Shown here in pieces: positions 30,362 to 53,698 of a stretch of DNA of 64,000 bases (position 1 is the stretch's first letter; each line of letters starts with the position of its first letter). The notes beneath the pieces are model-generated. The model was given only the letters and a program-made list of their open reading frames with translations. It was not told the origin of the DNA and made no database searches. Position numbers and translations under genes: made by a program. The stretch lies in assembly GCA_034003325.1 (NCBI GenBank), contig JAVEYW010000002.1, forward strand, positions 315,662 to 379,661, read 5' to 3'. The stretch is from Desulfobacterales bacterium (GTDB lineage Bacteria; Desulfobacterota; Desulfobacteria; Desulfobacterales; JAFDDL01).

Positions 30362-30389
30362 AGTCTATAAAGCCGGTTTCCGCCCGGCC

Positions 30390-30827: not shown

Positions 30828-30830
30828 GAG

Positions 30831-31830: not shown

Positions 31831-32043
31831 ATGGCCGAGATGGAAGATCGTTGGTTATCGATTAGCGAGATATGCAAATACCTCGGGGTTAGCAACGATA
31901 CCGTTTACAAGTGGATTGACAGGCATGGCATGCCTTCCCACCGCATGGGCCGTCTCTGGAAGTTCAAAAAAGACGAAGTTGACAAATGGGTGAAGGCCGG
32001 CGGCGCGGCTATGCACGGAAAAGGGAATCAAGGCCTGAAATGA
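31831..32043 (+). CDS. excisionase-family / MerR-like HTH DNA-binding protein
   Basis: The product is 70 aa with 'WLSISEICKYLGVSNDTVYKWIDRHGMPSHRMGRLWKFKKDEVDKWV', with the RBS gaggag. Its stop overlaps the first ATG of brxA (ATGA at 32040-32043). Confidence 0.8.
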   Translation: MAEMEDRWLSISEICKYLGVSNDTVYKWIDRHGMPSHRMGRLWKFKKDEVDKWVKAGGAAMHGKGNQGLK

Positions 32044-32654: not shown

Positions 32655-33262
32655 TTTCGGGTATCGAGAAGAAATCCATGCAAGAAAGATTTCAGCATCT
32701 GTTTGATGTGATCTCCGGAAAACGGTTTCTTCAGAAGCAAGGTCTCGGGAACGAAGTTCCTTTCTTCATTTGCCCTTTCAGACCGGAAGAGTGCGTCGAG
32801 ATGGAACGGCTGCAACGGCAGCTTGTCAACAGTCTTTCGCATGCGGGTGTCCGCGTGCTCGAAATTAACCTCTATGATCTTTCCATCGAGATTCTTAAAG
32901 GACGGGACCTCTGGGAACAAATCCTCGATATAGAAAACTCGGTGTCCAAGGAACAGCTCAGGGAGTTACTCCAAGGGGTGTTAGATCCCGAAGCCCATTT
33001 GGTCCCCGCCATCGCCGCCAAGCTTGCGAACAATGAATTTGACGTGCTGTTTCTGGCCGGCGTCGGTGCGGTTTTTCCCTATATCCGATCTCACAATGTG
33101 CTGAACAACCTGCAAAGCACGGCAAAAGAAAAACCGACCGTCATGTTCTTTCCGGGGGCCTATACCCACTCCCTGGAATCGGGCGCATCGCTCGATCTTT
33201 TTGGAAGATTGCATGACGATAAATACTACCGGGCGTTCAACATCTTTCACTGCGAAGCCTAA
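32651..33262 (+). CDS. brxB: BREX protein BrxB (DUF1788)
   Basis: Translation shows 'GNEVPFFICPFRPEE...', 'VLFLAGVGAVFPYIRSHNVLNNLQ' and 'VMFFPGAY'. There is an ATGA overlap with brxA. Confidence 0.85.
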   Translation: MISGIEKKSMQERFQHLFDVISGKRFLQKQGLGNEVPFFICPFRPEECVEMERLQRQLVNSLSHAGVRVLEINLYDLSIEILKGRDLWEQILDIENSVSKEQLRELLQGVLDPEAHLVPAIAAKLANNEFDVLFLAGVGAVFPYIRSHNVLNNLQSTAKEKPTVMFFPGAYTHSLESGASLDLFGRLHDDKYYRAFNIFHCEA

Positions 33263-33276
33263 ACGAAGGAAACACG

Positions 33277-36200: not shown

Positions 36201-36867
36201 GCAGGAGCCGAATTTTGACTACATCAGAGAAAGGGGAAGTGGGAAGCTCGAAGTGAAAGAGGGCTCACCCTACGGTTTTACGCCTGATACCTTGCTTCAG
36301 GCTTTGGCTGATCCCGAATGTTTTAAGGGTAATGGCATGCAGCAGGTGAAAACCCTGGTGGACACGCTGCAAGAAAAGGTGACGGCACGGATCGCGGCAG
36401 AGATCAAAAAAGCTTTAGATACCGTTGCGGCACTCAAGGACCGTCTTTGTGATATGGCCGAATTTGCCGCGCTAAAGCCAAGCCAGCAGGAGCAAATCAC
36501 TCGGTCATTCATCGAGTTTTCTCAGTCGATTGAACAACAAAAACTGATCGCCGTGATTCGCGATAACCTGCGGCGCTTTGAAGAATCCGACTACCAACGG
36601 CTGCTTTCCCAAATGGCTTCCTGGGCAAAACCCACACCAAAGCAAACCCCTTCGGGGGGAAGCGAACCGGCGCAAGCTTCAGGAAAGGAAACGGCAGTAA
36701 CACCGATTGAACCGGAAGCCCCTGTTGAATACGTGTCAGGCCGAAATCTCAGGTTTTCCTTTGATAAAGCCTGGCTTGCTGATGATTCGGATGTGGACCG
36801 GTACCTCAAGGCCATGCGGGAGGCGCTTTTGGCTGAGATCCGGAAAGGGAAGCGGATACAGATTTAG
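33277..36867 (+). CDS. brxC: BREX system P-loop ATPase BrxC
   Basis: The product is 1196 aa with the Walker A 'GFFGSGKSHLLKML', 'FFVDEVGQYI', and the size and position typical of BrxC. Confidence 0.9.
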   Translation: MTLKTIFNKPVDRPIEGVIKADDEESLLLETEEYVLTNEVEKRLESFLDAYNTYEGANGVWVSGFFGSGKSHLLKMLALLLENRRIDGVSALDLFLPKCGDNEILRGDLKRAVAIPSKSILFNIDQKADVISKTQIDALLAVFVKVFDEMCGYYGKQGHIAQFERDLDSRGHYEAFKSAYQTLAGKSWEKGREQALLESQNIAKAYARATGGEDTSAMGILDKYRSQYRVSIEDFADQIKAYVDRQSPEFRLNFFVDEVGQYIAGNVKLMTNLQTIAESLATKCRGRAWIMVTAQEDMNSVVGEMSNQQGNDFSKIQARFANRMKLTSADVAEVIQRRLLLKNDEGVRLLSDVYHAEVNNFKTLFDFADGSPIYRNFQDRDHFIHSYPFIPYQFVLFQSAIQNLSQHNAFEGKHSSVGERSMLGVFQQVAIQIGDHQIGQLATFDLMFEGIRTVLKSNIQRSILQSEKQLDNPFAIRLLKTLFLVKYVKEFKPTVRNLCVLMLDHFKQDLPQLRRQVEEALNLLELQTYIQRHGDLYAYLTDEEKDVEQEIKNTEVESTEIAAELEKIIFDYVIKNRKIRYDEKGQDYPYSRKLDDRLHGREYELSINAITPFHEFAGNEQTLRSHSFNREELLVVMPPNDRLVRDILMYKRTEKYIKQNISITQQEGVKRILTDKGFQNADRYAELKQLIQMLLGKAKLFVAGNEVEIGGEDPQARITKGFQQLIIRAYPNLRMLRGIAYTENDVVKCLKQSKEGLFGNDVTSLAESEQELLAFIQSNIRGGVRTTLKSLLEKFERKPYGWPYAAVLCTLAHLCARGKVEVRTDGTILEEDDLERALRNTHSHGNVVLEPQVDFTPSQVRSLKEFYEDFFDSPPRATEAKALAKETGAALKDMIQDLNPLAAQSAQYPFLNVLTPVLEKLKGLAGKPYAWYLTGLLCEDNALIALKEKVIDPVRKFMNGPQKGIFDAARKFVQEQEPNFDYIRERGSGKLEVKEGSPYGFTPDTLLQALADPECFKGNGMQQVKTLVDTLQEKVTARIAAEIKKALDTVAALKDRLCDMAEFAALKPSQQEQITRSFIEFSQSIEQQKLIAVIRDNLRRFEESDYQRLLSQMASWAKPTPKQTPSGGSEPAQASGKETAVTPIEPEAPVEYVSGRNLRFSFDKAWLADDSDVDRYLKAMREALLAEIRKGKRIQI

Positions 36868-36921
36868 TGCCTTATGGATTATTTTCTTGTTATTTTAAAA
36901 AGAAAATAATCCATAAGGCAC
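36867..36921. repeat. perfect 22-bp inverted repeat (hairpin) immediately after brxC stop
   Basis: GTGCCTTATGGATTATTTTCTT (36867-36888) and AAGAAAATAATCCATAAGGCAC (36900-36921) are separated by an 11-nt loop. No downstream T-run follows. Confidence 0.85.
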
Positions 36922-36951
36922 TTATCCCGGCGCCGGGGTTAGGAGTTACAC

Positions 36952-38625
36952 ATGAACGTAAGTGAACAGGAAGTCCTTGATCTGATTCGGCAAGGTGAAA
37001 ACCTGACCATTGAATTTAAAAGTGACCGGAAAAAGCTGTCTGACAGCGACCTGGTCGCTGCCATCGTCGCTCTGACAAACACGGAATGCGGCGTCCTTAT
37101 TTTGGGCGTGGAAGACGATGGGGCCATCACAGGGCTTCATGCATCCCACCGGGATACGCTTGGGATGGCCGCCCTAATTGCGAACCGCACCAATCCACCG
37201 CTTTCCGTCGGGATAGAACAAATTAAAGTTCAAGATATACCAGTCGTTCTCCTCCGTGTTCCCAAATCCAGACAACTGGTTTCTACCTCTGATGGATTGA
37301 TTCAGCGAAGGCGATTAATGGCAAACGGCAACCCCGAAGCCGTACCTTTTTACCCGCATGAATTTATTCAAAGACAATCTTCAATGGGATTGACCGACCC
37401 TTCCGCGATGCCCATCCAGGAATTACCCATCGATGAATTAAACCCCCTGGAAAGGCACCGAATACGCGAAGCTATTCGAAAATTCGGGGGCGATCAATCC
37501 TTGTTGCCGCTTGCGGACAATGAGTTGGATGGGGCTCTCGGGTTGACCAGGATTTCCGGTGGATCACTGTGCCCGACTTTGGCCGGGTTGCTGCTGCTTG
37601 GGCGCGAAGAACATCTGCGGCAATACTTGCCGGCATATGAAGTTGCCTTCCAAGTCCTTGAGGGTACGGATGTCAGGGTCAATGAGTTTTTCAGAAAACC
37701 GCTGTTACAAACTTTCGAGGCGGTAGAGCAGCTTTTTAGGGTACGTGTTACTGAGCAAGAGATTCAAATGGGGCTTTTCAGGGTTGCGGTTCCCAATTTT
37801 GATCGCCGCGCCTTCCGGGAAGCGTTTGTCAACGCGCTAGTTCATCGGGATTATTCCAGATTAGGCGCTGTCCATGTCCGTTTGGATGACGATGGCATCA
37901 CCCTTTCCAATCCCGGAGGCTTTGTTGAAGGTGTCACCTTGCAAAACCTGCTGGTTGTTCCTCCACGTGCACGAAATCCACTACTTGCGGATATTGTAAA
38001 GCGCATCGGCTTGGCGGAAAGGACAGGCCGCGGGATCGACCGTATTTATGAAGGAATGCTTCGATACGGACGCCCGGCGCCGGACTATGGCATGTCCGAT
38101 GCCACCTCTGTAGTGCTGTCCCTGTCCGATGTAGACCCTGACTTCAAATTTTTGGAAATGATCCTGAACCAGGAAAGCCGGACAGGATCCGCCCTGCCTA
38201 TTGACAGCTTGATTCTGCTTTCCCGTCTACGGAATGAACGCCGCCTTTCCATAGCAGAACTCACGCCGGAAATCCAAAAATCGGATCAAGCCACCAGGCG
38301 GGTCCTTGAAAAACTGGTGGAAGCGGGGCTGGTTGAGGCCCACGGTGTCGGTCGTGGCCGCACATACACGCTGAGCGTCAAGGTTTACCAGCAATCCGGG
38401 CAGAAAGCGGCATATGTCCGTCAGGCTGGGTTTGATCCCATTCAGCAGGAACAGATGGTTTTGAACTACATTGACGCGCATGGTTCCATTAAACGAGCGG
38501 ATGTGATTGAGCTTTGTCGATTAACCAAGGATCAGGCCGCGAAGCTTTTAAAACGGCTTATTTTTAAAGGGAATATAGAAAAGCATGGCGAGCGCAGGTG
38601 GACTCACTATGTGCGCAAATCATAA
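36952..38625 (+). CDS. AlbA_2 (Schlafen-like 'divergent AAA') + HATPase_c_4 + C-terminal winged-HTH protein (COG2865-type)
   Basis: The N-terminus 'EQEVLDLIRQGENLTIEFKSD...AIVALTNTECGVLILGVEDDGAITGL' is AlbA_2. The middle, 'FREAFVNALVHRDYS...VRLDDDGITLSNPGGF...RNPLLADIVKRIGLAERTGRGIDRI', is HATPase_c_4. The C-terminus has two HTH-like repeats. Confidence 0.8.
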   Translation: MNVSEQEVLDLIRQGENLTIEFKSDRKKLSDSDLVAAIVALTNTECGVLILGVEDDGAITGLHASHRDTLGMAALIANRTNPPLSVGIEQIKVQDIPVVLLRVPKSRQLVSTSDGLIQRRRLMANGNPEAVPFYPHEFIQRQSSMGLTDPSAMPIQELPIDELNPLERHRIREAIRKFGGDQSLLPLADNELDGALGLTRISGGSLCPTLAGLLLLGREEHLRQYLPAYEVAFQVLEGTDVRVNEFFRKPLLQTFEAVEQLFRVRVTEQEIQMGLFRVAVPNFDRRAFREAFVNALVHRDYSRLGAVHVRLDDDGITLSNPGGFVEGVTLQNLLVVPPRARNPLLADIVKRIGLAERTGRGIDRIYEGMLRYGRPAPDYGMSDATSVVLSLSDVDPDFKFLEMILNQESRTGSALPIDSLILLSRLRNERRLSIAELTPEIQKSDQATRRVLEKLVEAGLVEAHGVGRGRTYTLSVKVYQQSGQKAAYVRQAGFDPIQQEQMVLNYIDAHGSIKRADVIELCRLTKDQAAKLLKRLIFKGNIEKHGERRWTHYVRKS

Positions 38626-38636
38626 GTTATGCGTCA

Positions 38637-38698
38637 GGCTCATAGCTTATGAGCCGGCTCATAGGAGGCTCATAGGAGGCTCATAGGAGGCTCATATC
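38637..38698 (+). repeat. GGCTCATA motif array: one 8-bp-stem palindrome plus 3.5 tandem copies of an 11-bp unit (GGCTCATAGGA)
   Basis: The sequence reads GGCTCATAgctTATGAGCC, then GGCTCATAGGA x3 (38656-38688), then GGCTCATAtc. It lies directly after the stop of the AlbA_2 gene, ~190 bp upstream of pglX. Confidence 0.9.
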
Positions 38699-38890
38699 TC
38701 GAATGCTTCCATGAAAAAAAATTCGAGAGACAAATATAAATACGACGCTGAATAGAGTGACCATCTTCCTGCGCCGGGAAAATGGTCAAGTTGGTAAGCA
38801 AAGCGGCAAATATCAATGTAACAAATAGAAACTACAAAGTAAAATGCTTAATAATAGGTTGGGGAAATCACCGGCGACAAAGGAAGATGG

Positions 38891-41800
38891 ATGGAAACTT
38901 CGAAGCTGAAAAAATTTGCACAGTATGCGCGCCGAAACTTAATAGAGCAGGTTTCCGCCAAGCTGAAGCTGGTATTGGCCGAGGACAGCGCGGCCCGGCG
39001 CGAGAATGCCCCAGCCGTTAAAAAGCTTGAAGAGCAGATCGGGGAAACTGGCGAAAGCCAAGTGATCGAAAAGGTCGCCTATACCTGGTTTAATCGTTTC
39101 TGCGCGCTGCGTTTCATGGATGTGAACCGTTATACCCGGATTGGTGTGGTGTCGCCTGCAGAAGGGCAGTTTCAGCCTGAGATTTTGGCCGAGGCCAAGA
39201 TGGGCCATATCGACGAGAGCATGGTACCCGAGAAAACCCGGCAGAAGGTTTTTGCATTGCTGGATGGCAAGGTTCCCAGTAATGATCCGCAGACTGAGGC
39301 TTACCGACTCCTCGTGGTTGCCGTTTGTAACGACTACCACGATGCCATGCCCTATCTGTTTGAGCGGATTGCCGATTACACCGAACTGCTGATGCCCGAT
39401 GATCTGCTTTCGGGAAACTCTATCCTGGCCTACACCCGCGAGGCGATGACGCCTAATGCCTGCCAGGACGTGGAGGTCATCGGATGGCTCTACCAGTTTT
39501 ATATCAGCGAGAAGAAGGACGAGGTCTTTGACGGCCTGAAGAAAAACAAGAAAATCACCCCCGAAAATATTCCGGCAGCGACACAGCTCTTCACCCCGCA
39601 CTGGATCGTGCGGTATCTGGTTGAAAATTCCCTCGGTCGTCTCTGGATGCTGAACCGTCCCGATTCGAGATTGATTGAACGGATGGACTACTACATCAAG
39701 CCCGAAGAGGCGGAAACCGATTTCCTGCGCATCAGCAAGCCGGAAGAACTGAAGATCTGCGATCCGGCCTGCGGCTCCGGGCACATGCTGACTTATGCCT
39801 TCGACCTGCTCCATGCCATTTATGAGGAAGAAGGCTATGAACCTGCGGAGATCCCGGAAAAGATCCTCACCCACAACCTCTACGGCATCGAGATCGATGA
39901 ACGCGCCGGGGAACTGGCTGCCTTTGCCCTGACCATGAAGGCCCGCGCCAAACATCGCCGCTTTTTCAGAAAGAAGGTGGTCCCCAATATCTGCGTGCTG
40001 GAAAATATCCGGTTCAATGAGGGCGAGCTAAAGAGTTACATGGATTTTGTCGGGCGGGATCTTTTTACCGCGCCTTTGCAAACCACCCTGCGGCAGTTTG
40101 AAGAGGCGGATAACTTCGGGTCTCTGATTCGCCCTAAGGTAAGCGATGTGGCGTGGATATTAAAAACGCTGAAAGAGAAGAATGTCTCTGGACAAATTTT
40201 TCTGAGCAAGACCCATCTGAAGGTATTGAAGGTCTTGCGGCAGGCCGACTATTTCAGCCCCCAGTATCATGTGGTGATTGCTAATCCGCCGTATATGGGG
40301 GGCAAGGGGATGAATGGGCGTCTGGGTGCTTGGCTTAAAGATAACTATCCAGATGTGAAGTCTGATTTGTTTTCGGCCTTTATGGTTCGAAATACTGAGC
40401 TTGCTTTGCCGAAAGGCCAATTGGGTTTCATGTCGCCATTTGTATGGATGTTTATTTCATCTTTCGAAAGGCTACGCAATTTCCTCATTAATCAGAAAAC
40501 GATCACTTCACTTGTCCAGCTCGAATACTCCGGCTTTGATGGAGCAACGGTGCCAATTTGCACTTTCACTGTGGAGAACACACATCATCCCGATTTTAAG
40601 GGAGGGTATGTACGCCTTTCCGATTTTCGTGGGTCAGAATACCAAGGCCCAAAAACGCTCGAAGCCATTAATAATCAAAATTGTGGCTGGTTTTACCGAT
40701 CTTCCGGCACCAACTTCAAGAAAATACCCGGCAGTCCTATCTCTTATTGGCTGAGCGAAAAGTTGTTGAATAGCTTCACTAAAGCAAAGGAATACCTTTC
40801 AGATTCTGGAACTATACGTGAAGGTATAACAACTGGAGACAATGACCGTTTCTTGAGACTGTGGTATGAGGTTGGTCAATCTCATACGCAACTTGAATAT
40901 GATCAAGGCAACAGTTCTTATAAATGGTTTCCGCATAGAAAAGGGGGGGGCTATAGAAAATGGGCTGGGAATATGGAGTATTTTCTTAATTGGAAGGATA
41001 ACGGTACAGACATTCATGTGTTTCATGCGTTGCCACTTGACTATAATGGCGCACCAGTTCGTGGCAAAGCATATTTTTTTAGAGAGGCATTGTCTTGGAG
41101 TCGTATTAGCTCAGGAAAATTTTCATTGCGTTACCATAAAGCGGGCTCAACATATGACTCAACTGCGCCATCAGTATTCACAAGTTCCGACCGAAAAAAT
41201 CAAACGCTCGCTTTTTTGAATGGGAAAATTGTTGCTCATCTCTTGGCTGCGATAAGTCCAACCCTTGACTTCAGAATTACTAATCTCGGCAGATTGCCGT
41301 TGCTCTCTATCAACTCGTCCAGTCTGTCAAAAATTAATGCAAACACCATAGCTTTGGTTCGTTCTGGGCAAGTGGATTGGGATTCCTACGAAACCTCTTG
41401 GGATTTTAATGACCTGCCGCTACTTCGACCCGATTATTGGCAACCAACTTTGAACACCACTTACCAGAAGCTCCGCGCCCACTGGCAGGAAATGGCACTT
41501 GAAATGCAACGTCTCGAAAAAGAGAACAACCGCATCTTTATTGAGGCCTATGGCCTGCAAGATGAGCTAACACCCGACGTCCCTCTAAGTGAAATCACCC
41601 TGACCTGCAATCCCCACTACCGCTACGGTAACAACAAGAGCGAAGACGAGCTGGAAACCTTGCTCCTGGCCGACACCATGAAGGAGTTTATCTCCTACGC
41701 CGTGGGCTGCATGTTCGGCCGCTATTCGCTGGATAAACTGGGGCTAATTCTTGCCAACCAGGGCGAAACCATTGAGGATTATCTGAAGCAAATCCCCGAA

Positions 41801-42406
41801 CCGATCTTCCCGGCGGATGCCAACAACGTCATCCCCATGCTCGACGGCGACTGGTTCACCGACGACATCGCCGAGCGCTTCCGCAAATTCCTGCGCGTCA
41901 CTTTTGGCGAGGAGCACTATGAGGAGAACCTCAAGTTCCTCGAAAAGGCCCTGGGTAAAGACATCCGCAAGTATTTTCTTAAAGATTTTTATAACGACCA
42001 TGTTCGCCGGTACAAAAAGCGGCCCATTTACTGGCTGTTTTCAAGCCCAAAGGGCAGTTTCAATGCTCTCATCTACATGCACCGCTATCGCCCGGATACG
42101 GTGAGCGTGGTGCTCAATGATTATCTGCGCGAGTTCCGCGCTAAACTGATCGCCCGAAAGGATCATCTTGAGGCGGTGAGTATCAGCGCCGGTGCCTCCT
42201 TGGGAGAAAAAACCAAGGCGCTAAAAGAGATCGAAACCTTAAAAAAGATGATAAACGAGCTGAGCGCCTATGAACGCGAGGTGCTCTATCCGCTTGCTAC
42301 CCAGCAAGTGGCAATTGAGCTTGACGACGGGGTGAAGGTGAATTACCAGAAATTCGGCGCGGCCTTAAAGAAGATTCCGGGTCTGGATGCGAAAGGTGAG
42401 GAGTGA
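38891..42406 (+). CDS. pglX: BREX-1 N6-adenine DNA methyltransferase PglX
   Basis: The product is 1171 aa with the SAM motif 'ICDPACGSGHML', the catalytic 'VIANPPYMG', and a conserved C-terminal region 'RPIYWLFSSPKGSFNALIYMHRY'. Confidence 0.92.
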   Translation: METSKLKKFAQYARRNLIEQVSAKLKLVLAEDSAARRENAPAVKKLEEQIGETGESQVIEKVAYTWFNRFCALRFMDVNRYTRIGVVSPAEGQFQPEILAEAKMGHIDESMVPEKTRQKVFALLDGKVPSNDPQTEAYRLLVVAVCNDYHDAMPYLFERIADYTELLMPDDLLSGNSILAYTREAMTPNACQDVEVIGWLYQFYISEKKDEVFDGLKKNKKITPENIPAATQLFTPHWIVRYLVENSLGRLWMLNRPDSRLIERMDYYIKPEEAETDFLRISKPEELKICDPACGSGHMLTYAFDLLHAIYEEEGYEPAEIPEKILTHNLYGIEIDERAGELAAFALTMKARAKHRRFFRKKVVPNICVLENIRFNEGELKSYMDFVGRDLFTAPLQTTLRQFEEADNFGSLIRPKVSDVAWILKTLKEKNVSGQIFLSKTHLKVLKVLRQADYFSPQYHVVIANPPYMGGKGMNGRLGAWLKDNYPDVKSDLFSAFMVRNTELALPKGQLGFMSPFVWMFISSFERLRNFLINQKTITSLVQLEYSGFDGATVPICTFTVENTHHPDFKGGYVRLSDFRGSEYQGPKTLEAINNQNCGWFYRSSGTNFKKIPGSPISYWLSEKLLNSFTKAKEYLSDSGTIREGITTGDNDRFLRLWYEVGQSHTQLEYDQGNSSYKWFPHRKGGGYRKWAGNMEYFLNWKDNGTDIHVFHALPLDYNGAPVRGKAYFFREALSWSRISSGKFSLRYHKAGSTYDSTAPSVFTSSDRKNQTLAFLNGKIVAHLLAAISPTLDFRITNLGRLPLLSINSSSLSKINANTIALVRSGQVDWDSYETSWDFNDLPLLRPDYWQPTLNTTYQKLRAHWQEMALEMQRLEKENNRIFIEAYGLQDELTPDVPLSEITLTCNPHYRYGNNKSEDELETLLLADTMKEFISYAVGCMFGRYSLDKLGLILANQGETIEDYLKQIPEPIFPADANNVIPMLDGDWFTDDIAERFRKFLRVTFGEEHYEENLKFLEKALGKDIRKYFLKDFYNDHVRRYKKRPIYWLFSSPKGSFNALIYMHRYRPDTVSVVLNDYLREFRAKLIARKDHLEAVSISAGASLGEKTKALKEIETLKKMINELSAYEREVLYPLATQQVAIELDDGVKVNYQKFGAALKKIPGLDAKGEE
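40943..40950 (+). repeat. G8 homopolymer tract inside pglX (codons GGG GGG GGC)
   Basis: Read directly: aaaaGGGGGGGGctat, in frame with pglX ('HRKGGGYRKW'). Confidence 0.95.
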
Positions 42407-42413
42407 ACCGGAT

Positions 42414-43574
42414 ATGAGTGACAAGAACACCACGCAACCTGCATTGGACTTCGGACAACTGGTCGGTGTCATCCGTCAAGTCCATGACAAGTTGGCAGCC
42501 CAGGTAAGCCGGGCTGTCAATACCAGCCTCACCCTTCGCAACTGGATGATTGGGTTCCACGTTGAGGAGTATGAGCGCCGGGGCGTTGATCGTACCGAAT
42601 ACGGCGACAAGTTGATGGACATGCTCGCCGATAGTCTGACCCAGCTTGGCGTATCGCGTTGTGATCGGCGGGAAATTTACCGCTATCGCCAGTTGTATCT
42701 GACTTACCCGCAGATTGTGGAGATAGTGACTCCACAATTGCAGCCTCTGATAGGGCAGGTATGTTTGGCTGGTGCCGATTCTTCATCCGATGCCGCTGCC
42801 CCAACGATTGTGGAGACGTCTCCACAGTTCAGAATCGATGGTAAGACCCTGATTTCGCGCCTATCGTTTTCGCATATCGTGGAATTGCTCAACCTGGAAG
42901 ATGCCACCAAGCGCACGTTCTATGAGGTGGAGTGCATCCAGGGCAACTGGTCGGTTCGTGAATTGAGACGACAAATCCACAGCCTCTACTATGAACGTTG
43001 CGGCCTTTCGATAGATAAAAAGAAGCTTTCGGAACTTGCCCGGCAAGGCGCGGAGCAGGTGTCACCCGCCTTGCCGGTGCGCGACCCGTATATATTCGAG
43101 TTCCTGGGCCTGACGCCTCGAGAGGTGATGAGCGAATCACATCTCGAAGACCAGCTTATCAGTAAGATTGAAGAATTCCTTTTGGAGCTGGGCCACGGAT
43201 TCTGCTTTGAAGCCCGGCAAAAACGAATCCTGATCGGGGACGAGCATTATTTTATTGATCTGGTTTTCTATCACCGCATCCTGAAGTGCCATGTGCTGGT
43301 GGAGTTGAAACTGGCCGAGTTCAGCCATGAAAACATTGGCCAGCTCAATACCTACGTAAGCTGGTACAGAAAAAACATGATGCTTGAGGACGATAACCCG
43401 CCCATTGGCATCCTGCTTTGCACCCACAAGAAGCACTCTCTGGTCGAGTTCGCGCTGGCAGGTATGGATAACCGGCTATTTGTATCCAAGTACCAGATGG
43501 AGCTGCCCAAGCGGGAGGAAATCGAGCGGTTTCTTGCTGAAAAGCTCCATGAAGCAGGGGGCGTGGATGAGTGA
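42414..43574 (+). CDS. DUF1016 / YhcG-family PD-(D/E)XK nuclease
   Basis: The N-terminal helical domain reads 'LTLRNWMIGFHVEEYE...YGDKLMDMLADSL'. The C-terminus, 'RDPYIFEFLGL...HLEDQLISKIEEFLLELGHGFCFEARQKRILIGDEHYFIDLVFYHRILKCHVLVELKLAEF...GQLNTYVSWY', contains the D...ExK motif. The start is 7 nt after the pglX stop. Confidence 0.85.
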   Translation: MSDKNTTQPALDFGQLVGVIRQVHDKLAAQVSRAVNTSLTLRNWMIGFHVEEYERRGVDRTEYGDKLMDMLADSLTQLGVSRCDRREIYRYRQLYLTYPQIVEIVTPQLQPLIGQVCLAGADSSSDAAAPTIVETSPQFRIDGKTLISRLSFSHIVELLNLEDATKRTFYEVECIQGNWSVRELRRQIHSLYYERCGLSIDKKKLSELARQGAEQVSPALPVRDPYIFEFLGLTPREVMSESHLEDQLISKIEEFLLELGHGFCFEARQKRILIGDEHYFIDLVFYHRILKCHVLVELKLAEFSHENIGQLNTYVSWYRKNMMLEDDNPPIGILLCTHKKHSLVEFALAGMDNRLFVSKYQMELPKREEIERFLAEKLHEAGGVDE

Positions 43575-43677
43575 AAAAGGGGACTTATAAATGAAAATTA
43601 ACAGGTTGAGGTTAACCCTGAATTTACAGATATCCATGAAAGATCCCGAAAATAGAAACCGAAGGCGGCAATAGAAT

Positions 43678-46182
43678 ATGAATGATCGCATTGTCCAGGC
43701 ACTGACCAAGCTATTTGAGCGTTACCGCATCGTCTTCTGGTATGACGCCAAAAAGGAACTGCGTGCTGATTTCGAGGCGCTGGCGTTGGACGGGATTGAG
43801 AAGGTGGAGCTCACCAACAATGAGTTCGGGGTGAAACACCGGATTCTGCGGGAGCAACCGGAGCAGAAGTTTCTCCTCTACCGCGAAGGCCCACAGCCCG
43901 ACGACTTGGACAACTGGCTGCTGGATGTTCAGTTGGCCCATGGTGAATTCCGGACCGATCAGGCCGCGATCTGGCTCTCCGAGTTGGAGCTGGGACTTGA
44001 GTTTACCGATGTAGTGCAGGCTCATGCGGAGTTCTATCAGGCGGCTAAGCGAAAGGATGCACTTAAGCAGATCCTTAAACCCGATGATACCCCCGGCATG
44101 ATCCGCCTGAAGATGCTGGCGGTGTGCGCGGGATGTAAAACGGACCCGCGCATGGATGCCGTGGTGGAAAACCTGCTCGCGGAACTGGCCGATGAGCGGG
44201 ACGATAAGATGAAACTGATCGGCCGTTGCAATCTGGAGGGTTTTCTCTGGGAGCAGATGACCCGCTGCTACGGTTACAAGTCCGATGAGCCGGGCATACG
44301 CGATTTTGTTATCGAACTCTTTAAATCCTGCTATGCCATGGGGACCGATGGCGAGATCCGCCTGACCGGGGATGCCCTCGTGTTCCTCAAACACTGGAAA
44401 GACAGCCGTTCGTTTGAAGCGAGTTTTGAAACGCTCTCCGCTGAGTGTGCCGATGTGATCGGCATCGAACAGGATCTGGCCAAGCGGGATTACCGTGAAT
44501 TGATCGAGCTGGATTACTTCCCCCTGATTGATCAGAAAATTATCAGCGAGCTGGTTAAGGCCGTGGCATCCCGGACCGTATCAAGCGGCGATGTAGCGCT
44601 TTGGGTTCGTCCGCGCCGGCAGGGCCACTGGTTCGGAGAGTATCGCCACCTCTACGAAGCCGTTGATTTTGCCGCACAGTTCATGCAGACCATGGATGAG
44701 GCGGTATTAACCATGGTCAGTCTGGCGGATGGCGTTCAGCGTTACAGCCGTTTCTGGTTCCCATTGGATCAACTCTACCGAAAGTTCACTTACCATGTCC
44801 GCATGTCGGGGCAGGCCTCTCTAATGGGGGCATTATCCGAGCGAATTGAGAACCTCTATTCAAATAATTATCTGCTGAAGGTCAATGACCACTGGCAGTC
44901 TTTCGTCGACGAAACGGGCAAATGGGAGGCCCCTCCCGTCCCGCTGCAAAAGGACTTTTTCAGTCGCTGGGTACAGCCTTTTCTGAAGAAGGACAACAAG
45001 GTCTGTGTCATCATTTCGGACGCCTTACGCTATGAGATCGGCGACGAGTTATTGAGCCTCATTCGCCGGGAGGATCGATTCGAGGCGCATCTGGAACCCG
45101 CCTTGACCCTGTTACCGAGCTATACCCAGCTGGGCATAGCGGCGCTATTGCCCCATAGGGAATTGGCTCTGGCCGACAACGAAACTGGAGTTGTTCTCGC
45201 GGACGGCCAAAGCTCTCAAGGCACGGCCAATCGCATCAAGATCCTGGCGCAGGCCATTTCCCAACGGGCCACCGCGGTGAAGGCTGATGAATTAATGGGG
45301 TTAAATAAAGAGGATTGCAGAGGGTTAATTCGGGATCACGATGTGGTCTACGTATATCATAACCACATTGATGCAATCGGCGGCAAACGCGAAACGGAAG
45401 AACGCGTATTCGAGGCCGTGGAAGAGACCCTGCAGGATCTGATTCGATTGATTAAAAAACTCACCGGAGCCAACGCCAACAACCTGCTCATAACCTCGGA
45501 CCATGGTTTCATCTATCAGAACCGGGCCATCGAGGAGAGCGATTTTTCCGGTTGCGATGCCGTTGGGGACCTGATTCTGTTCCGTGACCGGCGTTTTGTG
45601 TTGGGCAAGGGGTTGAAGGAGGTTTCGGGCCTTCGCAAGTTTCAATCCGCCCAGCTTGGACTGGTCGGCGATGTGGAAGTGCAGATCCCGAAATCAATTA
45701 ACCGGCTGCGACTGAAGGGTTCGGGAAGCCGATTCGTCCACGGGGGCGCATCGCTTCAGGAGGTGGTGGTTCCGGTCCTTAAGATCAACAAAAAGCGGCA
45801 GAGCGATATTTCGTCAGTTGAAGTTGATATTTTACGAGGATCAAGCTCTGTGATCACCTCCGGTCAGCTCGCTGTCGCGCTCTACCAGGCGCAACCGGTA
45901 ACCGACAAGGTGCAGCCGAGAATCCTCCGGGCGGGTATCTTCACCCAGGCGGGCAATCTGATTTCCGATAGCCACGAGCTGACGTTTGACCTGGCATCCA
46001 ACAACCCGAGGGAAAGGGAGCAACAGGTGCGTTTTCTCCTGACCCGCAAGGCGGATGAGGCCAATGGCCAGGAGGTGATCCTGAAACTGGAGGAAAAACA
46101 TGTCGGGACCTCTCATTACAAAGAGTATAAGTCGCTCCGGTATATGATGCGGCGCTCATTTACCAGCGATTTTGACTTTTAA
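43678..46182 (+). CDS. pglZ: BREX-1 alkaline-phosphatase-superfamily protein PglZ
   Basis: The product is 834 aa with 'RIVFWYDAKKELR' at the N-terminus and a PglZ core 'VCVIISDALRYEIGDEL...TSDHGFIYQ...FVHGGASLQEVVVPV'. Confidence 0.9.
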   Translation: MNDRIVQALTKLFERYRIVFWYDAKKELRADFEALALDGIEKVELTNNEFGVKHRILREQPEQKFLLYREGPQPDDLDNWLLDVQLAHGEFRTDQAAIWLSELELGLEFTDVVQAHAEFYQAAKRKDALKQILKPDDTPGMIRLKMLAVCAGCKTDPRMDAVVENLLAELADERDDKMKLIGRCNLEGFLWEQMTRCYGYKSDEPGIRDFVIELFKSCYAMGTDGEIRLTGDALVFLKHWKDSRSFEASFETLSAECADVIGIEQDLAKRDYRELIELDYFPLIDQKIISELVKAVASRTVSSGDVALWVRPRRQGHWFGEYRHLYEAVDFAAQFMQTMDEAVLTMVSLADGVQRYSRFWFPLDQLYRKFTYHVRMSGQASLMGALSERIENLYSNNYLLKVNDHWQSFVDETGKWEAPPVPLQKDFFSRWVQPFLKKDNKVCVIISDALRYEIGDELLSLIRREDRFEAHLEPALTLLPSYTQLGIAALLPHRELALADNETGVVLADGQSSQGTANRIKILAQAISQRATAVKADELMGLNKEDCRGLIRDHDVVYVYHNHIDAIGGKRETEERVFEAVEETLQDLIRLIKKLTGANANNLLITSDHGFIYQNRAIEESDFSGCDAVGDLILFRDRRFVLGKGLKEVSGLRKFQSAQLGLVGDVEVQIPKSINRLRLKGSGSRFVHGGASLQEVVVPVLKINKKRQSDISSVEVDILRGSSSVITSGQLAVALYQAQPVTDKVQPRILRAGIFTQAGNLISDSHELTFDLASNNPREREQQVRFLLTRKADEANGQEVILKLEEKHVGTSHYKEYKSLRYMMRRSFTSDFDF

Positions 46183-46196
46183 AGGATGATCGAGCG

Positions 46197-48284
46197 ATGA
46201 ACGAACTTGACCAGAAAATAAACAAACACTTTCAAGGCCTTGTTGTTCGAAAAGATCTCGTCAAGACCGTCAAGGGCAACGCCATTGTTCCCTCCTACGT
46301 GCTTGAATATCTGCTGGGGCAATATTGCGCGACCAGCGACGAGGCTTCAATTGCGACAGGTATCGAGACCGTCAAGGAGATCCTGCGCAAGCACTATGTG
46401 CATCGAAACGAAGCGGGCCTGGTCCGTTCCAATATTAAGGAAAAGGGGCGCTATAAGGTCATTGACAAGATTAGCGTCGTGTTGAATGACAAGACGGATG
46501 CTTACGAGGCGGAGTTTTCCAATCTTGGTATCAAAAAGGTGCTGGTAGATTCCGGGACAGTGAAAGCGCACCCCAAGCTCTTGGTCAGCGGCGTCTGGTG
46601 CATCGCCGATATCGAATACGAGTTCACCGAGGAAAAAAATGCCACCCCCTGGATTTTATCAACGCTAAAACCGATCCAGCTGTCTCACTTTGATTTTGAT
46701 GGCTATGTTGAAGCCAGGAAACAATTTAACACCGACGAGTGGATCGATCTTTTGATCCAGAGCATCGGTTTCAACCCGGAGATGTTTGGCCGGCGGAGCA
46801 AGCTTTTGCAACTGATCCGGCTCATCCCCTTCTGCGAGCGCAACTACAACCTGATCGAACTCGGCCCCAAGGGGACGGGGAAATCCCATATCTATTCGGA
46901 GTTTTCACCCCACGGCATTCTGCTCTCCGGCGGTGAGGTAACCGTTCCCAAGCTATTTGTAAATAACGCCTCCGGTAAGATCGGCCTTGTCGGCTACTGG
47001 GATGCAGTCGCCTTCGATGAGTTCGCTGGGAAACAAAAGAAGGTGGATAAGGCGCTTGTGGATATCCTGAAAAATTACATGGCCAATAAGTCCTTCTCAA
47101 GGGGCGTTGAAACCCTCGGCGCGGAGGCATCCATGGTTTTTGTCGGGAATACCCGGCACACCGTGCCTTACATGCTCAAGCATTCAGATCTGTTCGACGA
47201 GCTGCCCGAAAAGTTCTATGACTCCGCATTCCTTGACCGTATTCATTTTTACATTCCCGGCTGGGAAGTGGATATCATCCGTGGCGAGATGTTTTCCAAT
47301 GGCTATGGTTTTGTGGTGGATTACCTTGCGGAGATCCTCCGGTCTCTGCGCAACCACGATTATTCGGACCGTTACAAAGAGCACTTTTCGCTTTCCACCG
47401 ATATCTCGACCCGCGACCGGGACGGTATCCATAAAACGTTTTCAGGCCTGATGAAGATCCTTTTCCCGGATGGAGGCGCATCCAAGGAGGAGATCGAGGA
47501 ACTGCTGAAGTTCGCCATTGAAGGCCGAAAGCGCATCAAAGATCAATTGCTGCGAATAGATACCACTTACCCAAGGGTGAAATTTGCCTATTTGGATACC
47601 ACGGGAAAAACCCGGCTGGTGAAAACACTCGAAGAAGAGGAGTATCCCCATTGCTACCACAAGACCGTTGCTGAAGAGGAAGCCGGAGCAACTGATACCG
47701 ACATCGATTCCCAAGAAATTCCAGATTCCCCACACGGAGATTCTTCCGATGCCCAACCTGCCGTCAAGGAACAACATCTGACTTTCCAGGAAAACCAGAG
47801 GGGCATCTCTTTTGACACCTTGCTTGGCCCATATCTGCGCGGCGCAAGCCGGATTACCATGACAGACCCCTATATCCGCCTGTTTTATCAAATGCGTAAC
47901 TTCATGGAATTCCTTGAAACAGTCGCAAAAAACAAGCCCAAGGACGAAGAGGTCACTGTTCACCTGGTAACAACAGAAGACGAGTTCAAAGGGGCACAAC
48001 AGAAAGAAAATTTCGAGAAGATAAAGGAATCCTGCGGCGCCGTTGGTATTGACTTTACCTGGGAATTTGACGCAACCGGGACTATTCACGCTCGCCACAT
48101 CGTGACCGATCATGGATGGAAGATCCTTCTGGATCGAGGCCTGGATATCTTCCAGCACTATGAGATGAACGATGCCTTCACTTTTGCCAACCGCCTTCAG
48201 CAATATCGGTCTTGTAAGGCCTTCGAGGCTACATTTATTAAAAATGAAATCTGTTCACATAGCACTGCTGCGGCAAAATCATGA
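46197..48284 (+). CDS. brxL: BrxL-family ATPase (Lon_2-type N-terminal + AAA core) with non-canonical C-terminal MIT_C/PLD-fold domain
   Basis: The N-terminus 'MNELDQKINKHFQGLVVRKDLVKTVKGNAIVPSYVLEYLLGQY' and the Walker A 'GPKGTGKSH' with 'WDAVAFDEFAG' are BrxL-like. The last ~170 aa, 'GISFDTLLGPYL...TDPYIRLFYQMRNFMEFLE...VHLVTT...IHARHIVTDHGWKILLDRGLDIF', align by eye with the MITD1 C-terminal domain. Confidence 0.8.
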   Translation: MNELDQKINKHFQGLVVRKDLVKTVKGNAIVPSYVLEYLLGQYCATSDEASIATGIETVKEILRKHYVHRNEAGLVRSNIKEKGRYKVIDKISVVLNDKTDAYEAEFSNLGIKKVLVDSGTVKAHPKLLVSGVWCIADIEYEFTEEKNATPWILSTLKPIQLSHFDFDGYVEARKQFNTDEWIDLLIQSIGFNPEMFGRRSKLLQLIRLIPFCERNYNLIELGPKGTGKSHIYSEFSPHGILLSGGEVTVPKLFVNNASGKIGLVGYWDAVAFDEFAGKQKKVDKALVDILKNYMANKSFSRGVETLGAEASMVFVGNTRHTVPYMLKHSDLFDELPEKFYDSAFLDRIHFYIPGWEVDIIRGEMFSNGYGFVVDYLAEILRSLRNHDYSDRYKEHFSLSTDISTRDRDGIHKTFSGLMKILFPDGGASKEEIEELLKFAIEGRKRIKDQLLRIDTTYPRVKFAYLDTTGKTRLVKTLEEEEYPHCYHKTVAEEEAGATDTDIDSQEIPDSPHGDSSDAQPAVKEQHLTFQENQRGISFDTLLGPYLRGASRITMTDPYIRLFYQMRNFMEFLETVAKNKPKDEEVTVHLVTTEDEFKGAQQKENFEKIKESCGAVGIDFTWEFDATGTIHARHIVTDHGWKILLDRGLDIFQHYEMNDAFTFANRLQQYRSCKAFEATFIKNEICSHSTAAAKS

Positions 48285-48347
48285 TTATTCATTTTGAATG
48301 ACACCAATGCTGAATCGGAAATTCCACTTCGATAATAAGGATAGAAT

Positions 48348-50006
48348 ATGAGAAAAGAGACATTACCCGTTCCATTTCCAAGATCGTACTGGGTTATCCC
48401 TGGCGTATTCATGGCCGGAGAATTTCCAGGTGCGCAAAGCCAGATTGAGGCAGACCATAAGCTTATCAAACTGATTGATTGCGGAATTCAGCACATCATT
48501 TGTTTGATGCAGCCGGATGAAACCGATCATAGTGGAAATCCCTTTAACGAATATGAAGATAGTGTCTTAAGGTTAGCAGAAAAGAAAAAAGTGACCGTGT
48601 CCTGTTTCAGGTTTCCCATAGCCGATCAGAATGTGCCAGGGGAATCTGAAATGAAGGTAATTCTTGATGCTATCACAATCAGCATCGAAAACCGGAAACC
48701 CGTCTACGTTCATTGTTGGGGCGGCATCGGTCGTACAGGCACAGTAGTAGGCTGTTTTTTATTGAAAAACGGGCTCGCTACTTCCGGCGATGTATTGCAA
48801 ACCATAGCCGATTTGCGAAAAGACGATCCGAAGAAACACCGAATCTCCCCCGAAACGGATGCCCAGCGAAAATATGTTAAATCTTGGCTCGATAGAGATA
48901 ATGGGCAACCAACAAACCTTTCGCGGACCATTGGGTGCATGTTGGGTGGCGCCGTCGGAGACGCATTGGGCGCCCCTGTTGAGTTTATGAAACGAGAGGA
49001 TATCCTGCGTCGTTTTGGGCCGGATGGAATTACCAGCTACGCACCGGCTTACGGAGGCTTGGGCACCATTACCGACGATACCCAGATGACGCTTTTTACC
49101 GCAGAAGGTTTAATTCGAGGTGATGTCCGAGGCCGCCACAAGGGCATTACGACGTACACAGGCATGACCGAAAACGCTTACCAGCGCTGGCTTTACACTC
49201 AAGGGGAGCGGTCTGCTAAATATATCGATATTAGCGGTGAAGGAGCGGGATGGCTGATCCAGCAACAGGCTTTGCACAACCGCCGGGCACCGGGGAACAC
49301 CTGCATTTCAGCTCTTAAGGAGATGTCGAAAACCGATAAACCAGCCCGTAATAACAGCAAGGGATGTGGCGGGGTGATGCGGATGGCGCCGGCCGGATTG
49401 TTTCACTGGCGCCTGAAAAACTACCATTCACCGCAGGAAACCTTCCAACTCGGAAAGGAACTGGCAGCGCTAACTCACGGTCACCCTACCGGAGCGCTTA
49501 CTGGTGGGGTGCTGGCTATTCTGATCTTAGCGCTGGCAGATGGTGCGACACTACCGGACGCTCTTTCATTGGCTAAAACCTTATTACGTCAGGAACGCCA
49601 GCATGAAGAAACGCTGTTGGCCATACAGCTTGCCGAAGAATATTCGAAGGCTGACATGCCCCATGAAGTTGCTATTTCTAAAATCGGCTTGGGATGGATC
49701 GCCGAAGAAGCGCTTGCCATCTCGATTTATTGTGCTCTCGTTGCCCGCGATTTTCGGGATGGTATCATTCTGGCGGTGAATCACGATGGTGATTCAGACT
49801 CGACGGGTTCGATTACTGGCGATCTTCTTGGCACTGTTTATGGCGCAAATGCCATTCCGCATGAATGGCTAGAGCCTCTTGAGTTAAGGGCGGTGATAAC
49901 CGAGTTGGCCCAAGATCTGTATGTTTTTCGCAACTGGAATATTGGCGAGTACTCAAATAACGAGGAATTAAACAAGTACATCTGGGAAAAATATCCTGGA
50001 TACTAA
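48348..50006 (+). CDS. fusion protein: CX5R (dual-specificity/PTP-like) phosphatase domain + ADP-ribosylglycohydrolase (ARH/DraG family) domain
   Basis: The N-terminal ~185 aa carry the P-loop 'VHCWGGIGRTGTVVG'. The C-terminal ~360 aa read 'GCMLGGAVGDALGAPVEF...TITDDTQMTLFTAEGL...GCGGVMRMAP...HGHPTG...AVNHDGDSDSTGSITGDLLG', the typical ARH metal-binding signatures. Confidence 0.85.
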   Translation: MRKETLPVPFPRSYWVIPGVFMAGEFPGAQSQIEADHKLIKLIDCGIQHIICLMQPDETDHSGNPFNEYEDSVLRLAEKKKVTVSCFRFPIADQNVPGESEMKVILDAITISIENRKPVYVHCWGGIGRTGTVVGCFLLKNGLATSGDVLQTIADLRKDDPKKHRISPETDAQRKYVKSWLDRDNGQPTNLSRTIGCMLGGAVGDALGAPVEFMKREDILRRFGPDGITSYAPAYGGLGTITDDTQMTLFTAEGLIRGDVRGRHKGITTYTGMTENAYQRWLYTQGERSAKYIDISGEGAGWLIQQQALHNRRAPGNTCISALKEMSKTDKPARNNSKGCGGVMRMAPAGLFHWRLKNYHSPQETFQLGKELAALTHGHPTGALTGGVLAILILALADGATLPDALSLAKTLLRQERQHEETLLAIQLAEEYSKADMPHEVAISKIGLGWIAEEALAISIYCALVARDFRDGIILAVNHDGDSDSTGSITGDLLGTVYGANAIPHEWLEPLELRAVITELAQDLYVFRNWNIGEYSNNEELNKYIWEKYPGY

Positions 50007-50059
50007 AGGGGAAATATGGCTCCTGTATTTCAGCGGCCATATTTGATCAAGGTGCCTTG

Positions 50060-50761
50060 ATGTCAATTTTTTCTTCTATAAAAGGTTTCGATGGCGAGTT
50101 AACTGGGTGGTTGTCCAAAAAACTGTTTCTCGATAGTGAAATTTATAAAGATTTTAACAACGTCACCATTAATACAAACAGTGGCACCACGCAAATTGAT
50201 CAGATAATCGTTTCCAAATTCGGGATTTTTGTCATTGAGGTTAAAAATTTAAAAGGTTGGATTTTTGGGGATGAAAAAGCTGCAAAATGGACACAAGCCC
50301 TTAATGGGAAAAAATATCAGTTCCAGAATCCATTGCGGCAGAATTTCAGACACACAAAAGCGTTATCTGCGTTTCTTGGTATAGACCACTCCAAGATTTA
50401 TTCCGTGGTGATGTTTTGGGGAGAGTGTGAATTCAAGACACCTATGCCGGAAAATGTCATGATGCGCGGCTGGACCAAGTATGTTAAATCCAAGTCGAAG
50501 ATAATGTTCACAGATGATGAAGTCGTCCAAATCGGTGAAGCTATCATGACCGGCCGTCTCCCAGCGACCTGGAACACAAAAAAGGCTCACCTTCAATCAC
50601 TGAAGGAGAGACACCAAGACGATGGCGTTTGCCCTAAATGCGGCCGTGGTCTCGTTTTGAGAACCGTTAGAAAAGGCCCCGAAATTGGAAGTCAGTTTTA
50701 CGGATGTTCAGGATTTCCTCAGTGCCATTTCACAAAAGCCGCCAAAATTGCAAACGGATGA
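50060..50761 (+). CDS. NERD-domain protein with C-terminal topoisomerase-type C4 zinc finger
   Basis: 'QIDQIIVSKFGIFVIEVKNLKGWIFGDEKAAKWTQ...QFQNPLRQNFRHTKAL' is NERD, and 'CPKCGRGLVLRTVRKGPEIGSQFYGCSGFPQCHF' is zf-C4_Topoisom-like. The gene is markedly AT-rich. Confidence 0.8.
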   Translation: MSIFSSIKGFDGELTGWLSKKLFLDSEIYKDFNNVTINTNSGTTQIDQIIVSKFGIFVIEVKNLKGWIFGDEKAAKWTQALNGKKYQFQNPLRQNFRHTKALSAFLGIDHSKIYSVVMFWGECEFKTPMPENVMMRGWTKYVKSKSKIMFTDDEVVQIGEAIMTGRLPATWNTKKAHLQSLKERHQDDGVCPKCGRGLVLRTVRKGPEIGSQFYGCSGFPQCHFTKAAKIANG

Positions 50762-53576: not shown

Positions 53577-53654
53577 TGGCGGGGACGGCGAGACTTGAAC
53601 TCGTGACCTCTGGCTTGACAGGCCAGCGCTCTAACCAAACTGAGCTACGCCCCC
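53577..53654 (-). tRNA. tRNA-Asp (anticodon GUC), CCA encoded
   Basis: Hand-folded cloverleaf: GGGGGCG-TA-GCTC-AGTTTGGTTA-GAGC-G-CTGGC-CTGTCAA-GCCAG-AGGTC-ACGAG-TTCAAGT-CTCGC-CGTCCCC-G-CCA. Confidence 0.9.
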
Positions 53655-53698
53655 TTATTTAAAATGGGATAACAGAAAGTTGCCCTGTCGCGTTCATA

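Follow-up and report, generated by a model that had tools for sequence, protein, structure and literature searches.

The 64,000-nucleotide (nt) window analysed here (contig JAVEYW010000002.1, positions 315,662 to 379,661, from a Desulfobacterales bacterium) contains, directly downstream of a type 1 BREX operon, a gene that joins a Cys-based phosphatase to an ADP-ribosylglycohydrolase (ARH) in one polypeptide. The open reading frame (ORF) of 552 amino acids (aa) begins with ATG and occupies exactly positions 48348..50006 of the forward strand, stop codon included. Both Pfam domains were recovered within it, in agreement with an earlier sequence-only reading of the window that had described a single two-domain ORF. 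The interpretation we favor, to which we give about an even chance, is that the protein is a two-headed 'eraser' without an ADP-ribosyltransferase (ART) of its own, located at the 3' end of the BREX operon in a defence island. The gene comprises the following features:

48337..48341, forward strand: Shine-Dalgarno-like AAGGA at a distance of 6 nt from the ATG, from the sequence itself
48384..48785, forward strand: Cys-based dual-specificity/protein tyrosine phosphatase (DSP/PTP) domain of the rhodanese-phosphatase superfamily, aa 13-146, from a profile search (Pfam PTP-SAK and Tc-R-P)
48624..48626, forward strand: codon of the predicted general acid D93, which precedes the catalytic Cys by 30 residues, from 16 orthologues and the PxxD of solved small PTPs
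48708..48740, forward strand: phosphatase P-loop V121-HCWGGIGRTG-131, with C123 as nucleophile and R129, from the sequence and the orthologue alignment
48933..49862, forward strand: ARH domain, aa 196-505, from Pfam (9.3e-76), invariant residues and Foldseek
49863..50003, forward strand: C-terminal tail (…EYSxNxxLNxxIWxKYPGY), common to ~625-aa and standalone ARH relatives and absent from some orthologues

The N-terminal half belongs to the Cys-based phosphatases by its profile score, its HCX5R(S/T) P-loop and its upstream Asp, and phosphomonoesterase activity is predicted for it. Residues 13-146 matched the Pfam family PTP-SAK (PF22784, 'Swiss Army Knife protein DSP-PTPase') with an E-value of 1.4e-18 and 67.8 bits against a cut-off of 27, and they also scored above the cut-offs of Tc-R-P (PF22785; 6e-15, 56.1 bits vs 27) and PTP-NADK (PF22741; 1.1e-8, 35.1 bits vs 27). 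In an alignment of 16 full-length orthologues with 52-71% identity, D93, H122, C123, R129 and T130 were invariant. A profile of this half matched small DSP and archaeal-type PTPs (25xa, ShufPTP, TkPTP, DUSP23 and SsoPTP) with the catalytic Asp and the P-loop aligned; the features shared with DUSP23/VHZ, SsoPTP, TkPTP and 25xa are the HCX5R(T) P-loop, the Asp ~30 residues upstream and a minimal domain of ~150 aa. Unlike these small phosphatases, the clade of the window protein has an N-terminal, clade-specific PFPRSYWV motif, which begins at aa 9 just ahead of the phosphatase domain, and a C-terminal SPET..Q motif, and it is fused or adjacent to an ARH, to ARPP-1 or to an unannotated domain of 350 aa.

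The second half is a complete ARH by its profile match, metal ligands and TH motif, with ADP-ribosyl hydrolysis as the predicted activity. Pfam ADP_ribosyl_GH (PF03747) aligned to aa 196-505 over profile positions 1-286 of 287 (E-value 9.3e-76, 255.7 bits vs 26.2); this match and that of the first half to PTP-SAK exceed chance by far. The metal ligands are D205 (in GDALG), E212, T242, D243 and D244 (in TDDTQM) and D482, D484 and S485 (in GDSDSTG, which also includes T486), and the TH motif is formed by T376 and H377; all of these residues were invariant among the 16 orthologues. The sequence-only reading had assigned both domains with complete catalytic residues and had listed the motifs VHCWGGIGRTG, GDALG, DDTQM and GDSDSTG, and on each of these points it was correct. 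By sequence, the nearest solved proteins to the ARH half were MJ1187, Lmo0067, DraG, a Thermus ARH and Tri1. An AlphaFold2 model built from the orthologue alignment, with a predicted local distance difference test (pLDDT) of 82.5 and a predicted template-modelling score (pTM) of 0.90, has the all-alpha ARH fold. Foldseek searches with this model retrieved MJ1187, Tri1 (6dre, rank 2), Lmo0067 (8za7, rank 3) and DraG, with target template-modelling (TM) scores of 0.65-0.79; ARH1 and ARH3 ranked behind these four, and the Foldseek probability was 1.00 across the set, with target TM scores of 0.6-0.79.

The window ARH resembles DraG in its fold, its binuclear metal site and its alignment over the whole domain. 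Unlike DraG, the protein occurs without DraT or a nitrogenase context, and it has an extra phosphatase domain and the C-terminal tail; orthology to DraG was rejected at 88.9 bits against the equivalog cut-off of 337.05 (TIGR02662). Tri1, of the Serratia Tre1-Tri1 pair, and Lmo0067 have the same fold and metal-site architecture as the window ARH, and both are conflict ARHs that reverse the mark of a foreign transferase. They differ from it in being encoded beside a cognate ART toxin and without a phosphatase domain, and they share 22-23% identity with it; orthology to Tri1 was also rejected (80.3 bits vs the equivalog cut-off of 490, NF041672). The fusion gene is flanked by brxL and by a NERD gene and not by a cognate ART gene, as would be the case in an ART-ARH toxin-antitoxin pair. 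Among the annotated genes between 27.9 and 52.3 kb of the window and in 14 orthologue contexts, small unannotated ORFs aside, no ART or SIR2 Pfam families were found.

The proximity to Tri1 and to the Listeria ART-ARH immunity protein Lmo0067 among solved structures raises the possibility that the protein is an orphan immunity factor against interbacterial ART toxins, reversing, in the manner of Tri1, marks delivered by competitor bacteria and not by phages. Such a role would be consistent with the match of the phosphatase half to Tc-R-P, the 'Polymorphic toxin system DSP-PTPase' family, and an orphan immunity gene would be predicted to have no adjacent cognate transferase, as is the case here. 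We nevertheless consider it unlikely, given a score far under the Tri1 equivalog cut-off and neighbors that are anti-phage (BREX, CRISPR, AbiE, TIR) and do not form secretion-system or polymorphic-toxin loci; no effector/immunity arrays were seen.

The fusion gene begins 63 nt after the brxL stop codon at 48284, with the AAGGA as its own putative ribosome-binding site, both as stated in the sequence-only reading. In this spacer, transcription signals were represented by weak consensus matches alone, and there was no strong terminator. The JGI gene call on the identical sequence places the start 21 codons further in, resulting in a protein of 531 aa; because the PFPRSYWV motif that is conserved among orthologues lies upstream of the JGI start, the 552-aa start is the better one. 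The sequence-only reading also described the gene as AT-richer than the BREX genes, and this was true in part. The GC content at third codon positions was 0.50, compared with 0.53-0.67 for the BREX core genes, and the phosphatase half had a GC content of 0.454, while that of the whole gene equalled that of brxL (both 0.497). The NERD gene was clearly AT-richer, at 0.418.

The pairing of this type of phosphatase with an ARH is not particular to the window. A scan with the phosphatase half against one genome per GTDB species returned at least 492 relatives from many phyla, and a metagenome scan at least 565 further relatives; 160 retrieved loci (individual loci are given L numbers) were then analysed with our own ORF calling and hidden Markov model (HMM) searches. 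Most members of the phosphatase module in these loci were standalone proteins of ~180-200 aa. Fusions to the ARH clade of the window occur in the order phosphatase-ARH in the window and in L001-5, L008, L086-92 and L170-173, and in the reverse order in L026 and L073. A second ARH clade is fused to the module in both orders (L006 and L079; L054, L047 and L078), a third is fused to it in L027, and in L017, L018, L023 and L028 the module is fused to ARPP-1, with a separate ARH gene alongside. ADP_ribosyl_GH was also the commonest Pfam family among the immediate neighbors of the module (9 of 150, from 80 genomes). With at least three ARH clades and both domain orders represented, the coupling of phosphatase and ARH is recurrent and of independent origin.

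Several relatives showed other associations. The second commonest neighbor family of the module was CN_hydrolase (5 of 150). Standalone phosphatases at L025, L032, L035, L039 and other loci from Syntrophobacterales-like genomes had a common order of genes upstream, of ~266, 158 and 117 aa. A subset of the module may therefore have another role that is not linked to ARHs. Planctomycetes have fusions in which the module is followed by a conserved domain of ~350 aa at the C-terminus (L036, L037, L055, L067, L069, L123, L162 and L167; for example L036 10574-11647) with the motifs QFNLLEMVSPS, TQGPACAIACGAGT and LLGGGAFGN. Searches with this domain returned no Pfam match and no PDB sequence match at E ≤ 1; its GGGAFGN motif may point to a fold of the macro/PARG type. 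The ARH half of the window protein, in turn, is ~70% identical to a very large family, mostly of ~625 aa with some standalone members, which is represented by P0027, P0052 and ~50 further matches and includes one 90% cluster of 1009 members. The ~270-aa N-terminus of the ~625-aa relatives had no Pfam match and no PDB sequence match at E ≤ 1. The nearest of these relatives, P0052 (69% identical; L176 8001-9875), belongs to an operon that also encodes an HD_4 phosphatase, an unknown protein of 554 aa and, in divergent orientation, a BrxR-type WYL regulator; a NERD protein of 470 aa is encoded 3 kb away.

These observations place the window protein within a class that had already been predicted. 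Host systems without an ART, termed 'ARG-centric' after the ADP-ribosylglycohydrolase (ARG in that study), were described by Iyer, Burroughs, Anantharaman and Aravind (Viruses 2022, section 3.8; PMC9503650). In more than 55% of those cases the ARG is coupled to a phosphatase, either within one polypeptide or through a neighboring gene; members of the rhodanese-phosphatase superfamily are the commonest, and HAD, HD and calcineurin-like enzymes also occur. Frequent partners are Nudix- or WYL-helix-turn-helix (HTH) regulators, chaperones, restriction endonuclease (REase)-fold effectors with helicases, Macro/NADAR and ARPP. From computational evidence, the authors proposed that such systems remove ADP-ribose marks set on the host by phage transferases and that the phosphatase further processes the freed ADP-ribose. 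The window protein is a member of this class in a compact, single-polypeptide form: it has no coupled ART or sirtuin, its ARH is fused to a Cys phosphatase of the rhodanese-phosphatase superfamily, and a gene of the REase fold (NERD) lies 53 nt downstream. The WYL/HD/ARH operon of L176, in which the ARH clade of the window recurs, has the published layout, and the Pfam names PTP-SAK, ARPP-1 and REase-ARP, all of which matched here or in orthologue loci, reflect the 2022 definition. The REase/helicase effector layer is matched at L054 (9065-13648) and L006 (6720-11533), where fusions of another ARH clade abut helicase-nucleases with gaps of 0 and 53 nt; these proteins of ~1030-1070 aa match the PADLOC models mREase_IV and PbeA and are type IV-restriction-like, and at L054 brxA and brxB are found 8 kb away. 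The combination, for which the sequence-only reading had considered an undescribed system, had been defined computationally in 2022, including its fused or adjacent arrangement and its REase-fold effectors, and the reversal of phage-imposed ADP-ribosylation, one of the candidate roles in that reading, equals the published prediction.

The same operons might also be taken to indicate a processor of soluble nucleotides, which would break down or reset a signal or side product based on ADP-ribose (ADPR), for instance ADPR-1''-phosphate, cyclic ADPR isomers or NADP-derived 2'-phospho-ADPR, and would not act on macromolecular conjugates. ARG-centric operons do swap in nucleotide-type phosphatases (HD_4 in L176; HAD, HD and calcineurin-like enzymes according to PMC9503650), in L170 the orthologue is preceded by a Nudix gene, the neighborhood of L089 includes a TIR protein, and the match to PTP-NADK connects the phosphatase to a clade fused to NAD kinase. 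This role seems rather unlikely to us, since neither the window nor most contexts had Thoeris, CBASS or other signal-producing genes next to the fusion, and since characterised ARHs mostly act on macromolecular adducts, a preference also argued for ARGs from their phyletic patterns (PMC9503650). The fusion is also nearly absent from sequenced phages, where enzymes that degrade signals would be expected: among 50,697 phage records there was no two-domain match covering at least 80% of the protein, and IMG/VR had few two-domain matches, at ~35% identity. From the same counts, a phage-borne counter-defence gene was judged unlikely.

The genomic contexts of the phosphatase-ARH clade were compared across 15 distinct loci, the window included. 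In the window itself, the fusion gene follows the last gene of a complete BREX operon, with six core genes and two inserts:

31986..48284, forward strand: type 1 BREX operon brxA, brxB, brxC, [Schlafen/AlbA_2-HATPase_c_4-winged HTH], pglX, [DUF1016/YhcG PDDEXK], pglZ and brxL, from Pfam and PADLOC

The upstream neighbor BrxL scored 1219 bits in PADLOC, in which the fusion protein matched none of the families; it is not a BREX core component. BREX genes or PglZ were adjacent in 4 of the 15 contexts, two of them directly after brxL: the window, L088 (51% identical, 75-nt gap after brxL), L005 (divergent from and adjacent to brxA, with a 1356-aa neighbor that has an LmuA-like N-terminus) and L086/L087, where BrxH and PglZ lie 1.8 kb upstream on a conjugative element. 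Other contexts contained AbiL/RloB, AbiE, Fic and an insertion sequence (IS) transposase (L001), RhuM, CHAT and a KAP NTPase (L003), Cas1/Cas3, a resolvase, SLATT and TIR-TPR (L089), or HTH-M78, a second ARH, Fic and GIY-YIG (L173); REase-ARP (PF22558) was also present in L001. Altogether ~9 of the 15 contexts were beside defence genes (BREX, CRISPR-Cas, AbiE, AbiL/RloB, RhuM, TIR, SLATT or Lamassu-like), as would be consistent with the defence-island setting that the sequence-only reading had assumed. Of the two pairings whose conservation it suggested checking, the one with BREX/PglZ was found in the four contexts above, and the one with NERD, besides the window, in L001 alone.

Found in 3 of 14 independent contexts, the repeated placement at BREX boundaries is a suggestive pattern and not yet an established one. 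It seems not to have been described previously, because the catalogue of BREX-associated genes in PMC12839542 (NAR 2026) has no ADP-ribosyl enzymes and PMC9503650 has no BREX; the window fusion lies at a BREX 3' end, and the latter paper has 0 occurrences of BREX, PglZ and NERD. In directly adjoining the BREX core genes as a non-core gene, the window fusion resembles the auxiliary and backup effectors of PMC12839542; unlike it, those catalogued are nucleases only, with 0 occurrences of ADP-ribosyl hydrolases or PTP phosphatases. Simple vertical co-inheritance with BREX was rejected, as BrxL and PglZ share 37% and 28% identity between the window and L088, compared with 51% for the fusion.

This placement leads to a further possibility, that of a dedicated BREX accessory which would protect or regulate BREX itself, for example by clearing from BREX proteins or DNA the ADP-ribose or phosphate marks with which phages disable exclusion. 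The location immediately behind brxL in two BREX loci that have diverged deeply (window and L088), the adjacency to brxA in L005 and to BrxH-PglZ in L086, and a spacer from brxL with no strong terminator would all fit such a role. BREX 3' ends are, however, known landing sites for unrelated auxiliary genes (PMC12839542), and 11 of the 15 contexts, that of the closest orthologue L001 included, had no BREX in reach. Moreover, no phage ART is known to target BREX, and we regard the accessory role as quite unlikely. In a more specific form, which appears improbable, the gene would be a genuine accessory repeatedly recruited after brxL: some phages would use ADP-ribosylation, perhaps at or beside a phosphate, to disable BREX or to mark host DNA or proteins, and a two-step deconjugation would restore BREX function. 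If true, anti-BREX strategies of a new class would come to light, together with the first 'anti-anti-defence' eraser of a host.

A housekeeping role like that of DraG, in which the ARH would reverse the endogenous regulatory ADP-ribosylation of a metabolic enzyme and the island location would be incidental, appears very improbable. Orthologues do lie among metabolic genes in L002, L092, L170, L171 and L172, and distant plasmid homologues occur in non-defence settings. However, the score is far under the DraG equivalog cut-off and no DraT-like transferase is nearby; the distribution is patchy, with varying contexts that include IS elements, resolvases and integrases, and defence adjacency is far commoner than would be expected for a housekeeping gene.

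We therefore return to the two-headed eraser without an ART of its own as the preferred explanation. Its ARH would hydrolyse ADP-ribosyl bonds set on host macromolecules by a foreign ART, most likely a phage enzyme like Alt, ModA or ModB; judged from the nearest solved ARH relatives, these bonds would most likely be N-glycosidic and of the arginine type. This action would release ADP-ribose and restore the target, and the Cys-phosphatase would then strip a terminal phosphomonoester, either from the freed product derived from ADP-ribose or from the substrate that bears the modification. What the two domains act on, which reaction comes first, any anti-phage effect and the processing of a single phosphorylated ADP-ribose species by both domains are inferences.

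Several observations weigh against this explanation. Most relatives of the phosphatase module are standalone proteins that have no ARH nearby, which indicates that the ARH is not strictly needed by the phosphatase. The two domains could also erase two unrelated marks, phosphorylation and ADP-ribosylation, and to our knowledge there is no citable biochemical precedent for a Cys-PTP acting on phosphates derived from ADP-ribose. About a third of the orthologue contexts have a non-defensive appearance. Five or so (L002, L090, L092, L170 and L171) are metabolic-looking or too short to judge, and of three plasmid homologues with 36-37% identity the one inspected (L242) was found in a non-defence setting beside an IS element. 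In addition, two of the frequent but not obligatory components of the published class were missing from the window: a Nudix- or WYL-HTH regulator (~42% of ARG-centric systems) was not adjacent to the fusion gene, and a peptide-binding chaperone (vWA, SseB or TY-Chap) was not found among its neighbors. The version in the window is therefore a minimal ARG-centric system, of one or two genes. The literature searched contained no experimental test of the class.

If the published prediction is right, such systems would be the first bacterial defence that erases a phage-imposed modification in place of attacking the phage or killing the cell. The fusion could serve to define how a Cys-phosphatase acts in ADP-ribose chemistry. 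As a compact single gene beside the well-studied BREX, with both predicted active sites intact and a series of orthologues, it offers a convenient entry point. The repeated BREX-boundary placement is a modest new observation and might indicate that phages counter BREX by ADP-ribosylation.

Downstream of the fusion, the following features were identified:

50012..50044, forward strand: 14-nt inverted repeat AAATATGGCTCCTG / CAGCGGCCATATTT with a 5-nt loop, 86% complementary, in the spacer between the fusion and NERD genes, with no T-run after it; absent from the L001 spacer
50060..50761, forward strand: NERD protein of 233 aa (PD-(D/E)xK-type, D47…E60-x-K62) with a C4 Top1-type zinc ribbon, from Pfam; start confirmed by L001, motif found by eye

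The spacer between the fusion stop codon and the NERD ATG measures 53 nt, and the Pfam matches of the downstream gene were NERD (2.1e-27) and Zn_ribbon_Top1 (8e-11). Across 176 related loci searched with tblastn and phmmer, the window NERD was found only in L001 (11708-12162). There, residues 1-102 have 89% aa identity, more than the fusion (71%), residues 103-179 are deleted, and the sequence resumes at aa 180 in another frame by a frameshift; the L001 copy is probably a pseudogene or an assembly error. The fusion-NERD pair thus follows BREX in the window and a transposase in L001, and we conclude that it moved as a cassette into these two settings, with the nuclease dispensable or decaying in one. 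NERD as an obligate partner was rejected, and the suggestion of the sequence-only reading that the fusion could be the effector of an undescribed system together with the NERD protein did not hold, because the pairing is not conserved. A gene present only in the window and in decayed form in L001 fits a variable, optional effector layer, not an obligate two-gene system. By its domain content, the NERD-zinc-ribbon protein is possibly a facultative nuclease partner, and in the preferred explanation it would be an optional second-line effector.

The BREX operon has features of its own. The gene between brxC and pglX (36952-38625, forward strand) encodes Schlafen/AlbA_2, HATPase_c_4 and winged-helix domains, and PMC12839542 lists this Schlafen-HK-wHTH architecture as a BREX-linked backup RNase module that is widespread. 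In L006 (12683-14185), a weak homologue of this insert is encoded two genes after the phosphatase-ARH fusion of another clade. The gene between pglX and pglZ (42387-43574, forward strand) encodes a DUF1016_N and YhcG PD-(D/E)XK nuclease and shares its first 20 nt with the end of pglX. In the window BrxL (46197-48284, forward strand), an MIT_C/PLD-like (HKD) C-terminus at aa 536-681 replaces the Lon-protease domain. The L088 BrxL has the same MIT_C/HKD C-terminus, despite 37% identity, and is also followed by the phosphatase-ARH fusion. Both inserts and the BrxL-HKD variant belong to types catalogued in PMC12839542.

Upstream of the operon, a gene at 29531-30361 (forward strand) encodes an MqsA-like HTH joined to an antitoxin-type domain of the SocA/Panacea kind. 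The next 1.6 kb (30362-31985) contain small ORFs only, among them an HTH/terminase-small-subunit-like one at 30831-31199; another, at 31831-32043, encodes an excisionase/AlpA-like HTH of 70 aa and overlaps the start of brxA. These may be mobile-element remnants or regulators. On the other side, 2.8 kb past the NERD gene, tRNA-Asp and tRNA-Val genes are found at 53577-53774 on the reverse strand, and a GC-rich (0.595) gene for a flavin oxidoreductase of the Old-Yellow-Enzyme type lies between these and the NERD gene; this region may mark the edge of the island.

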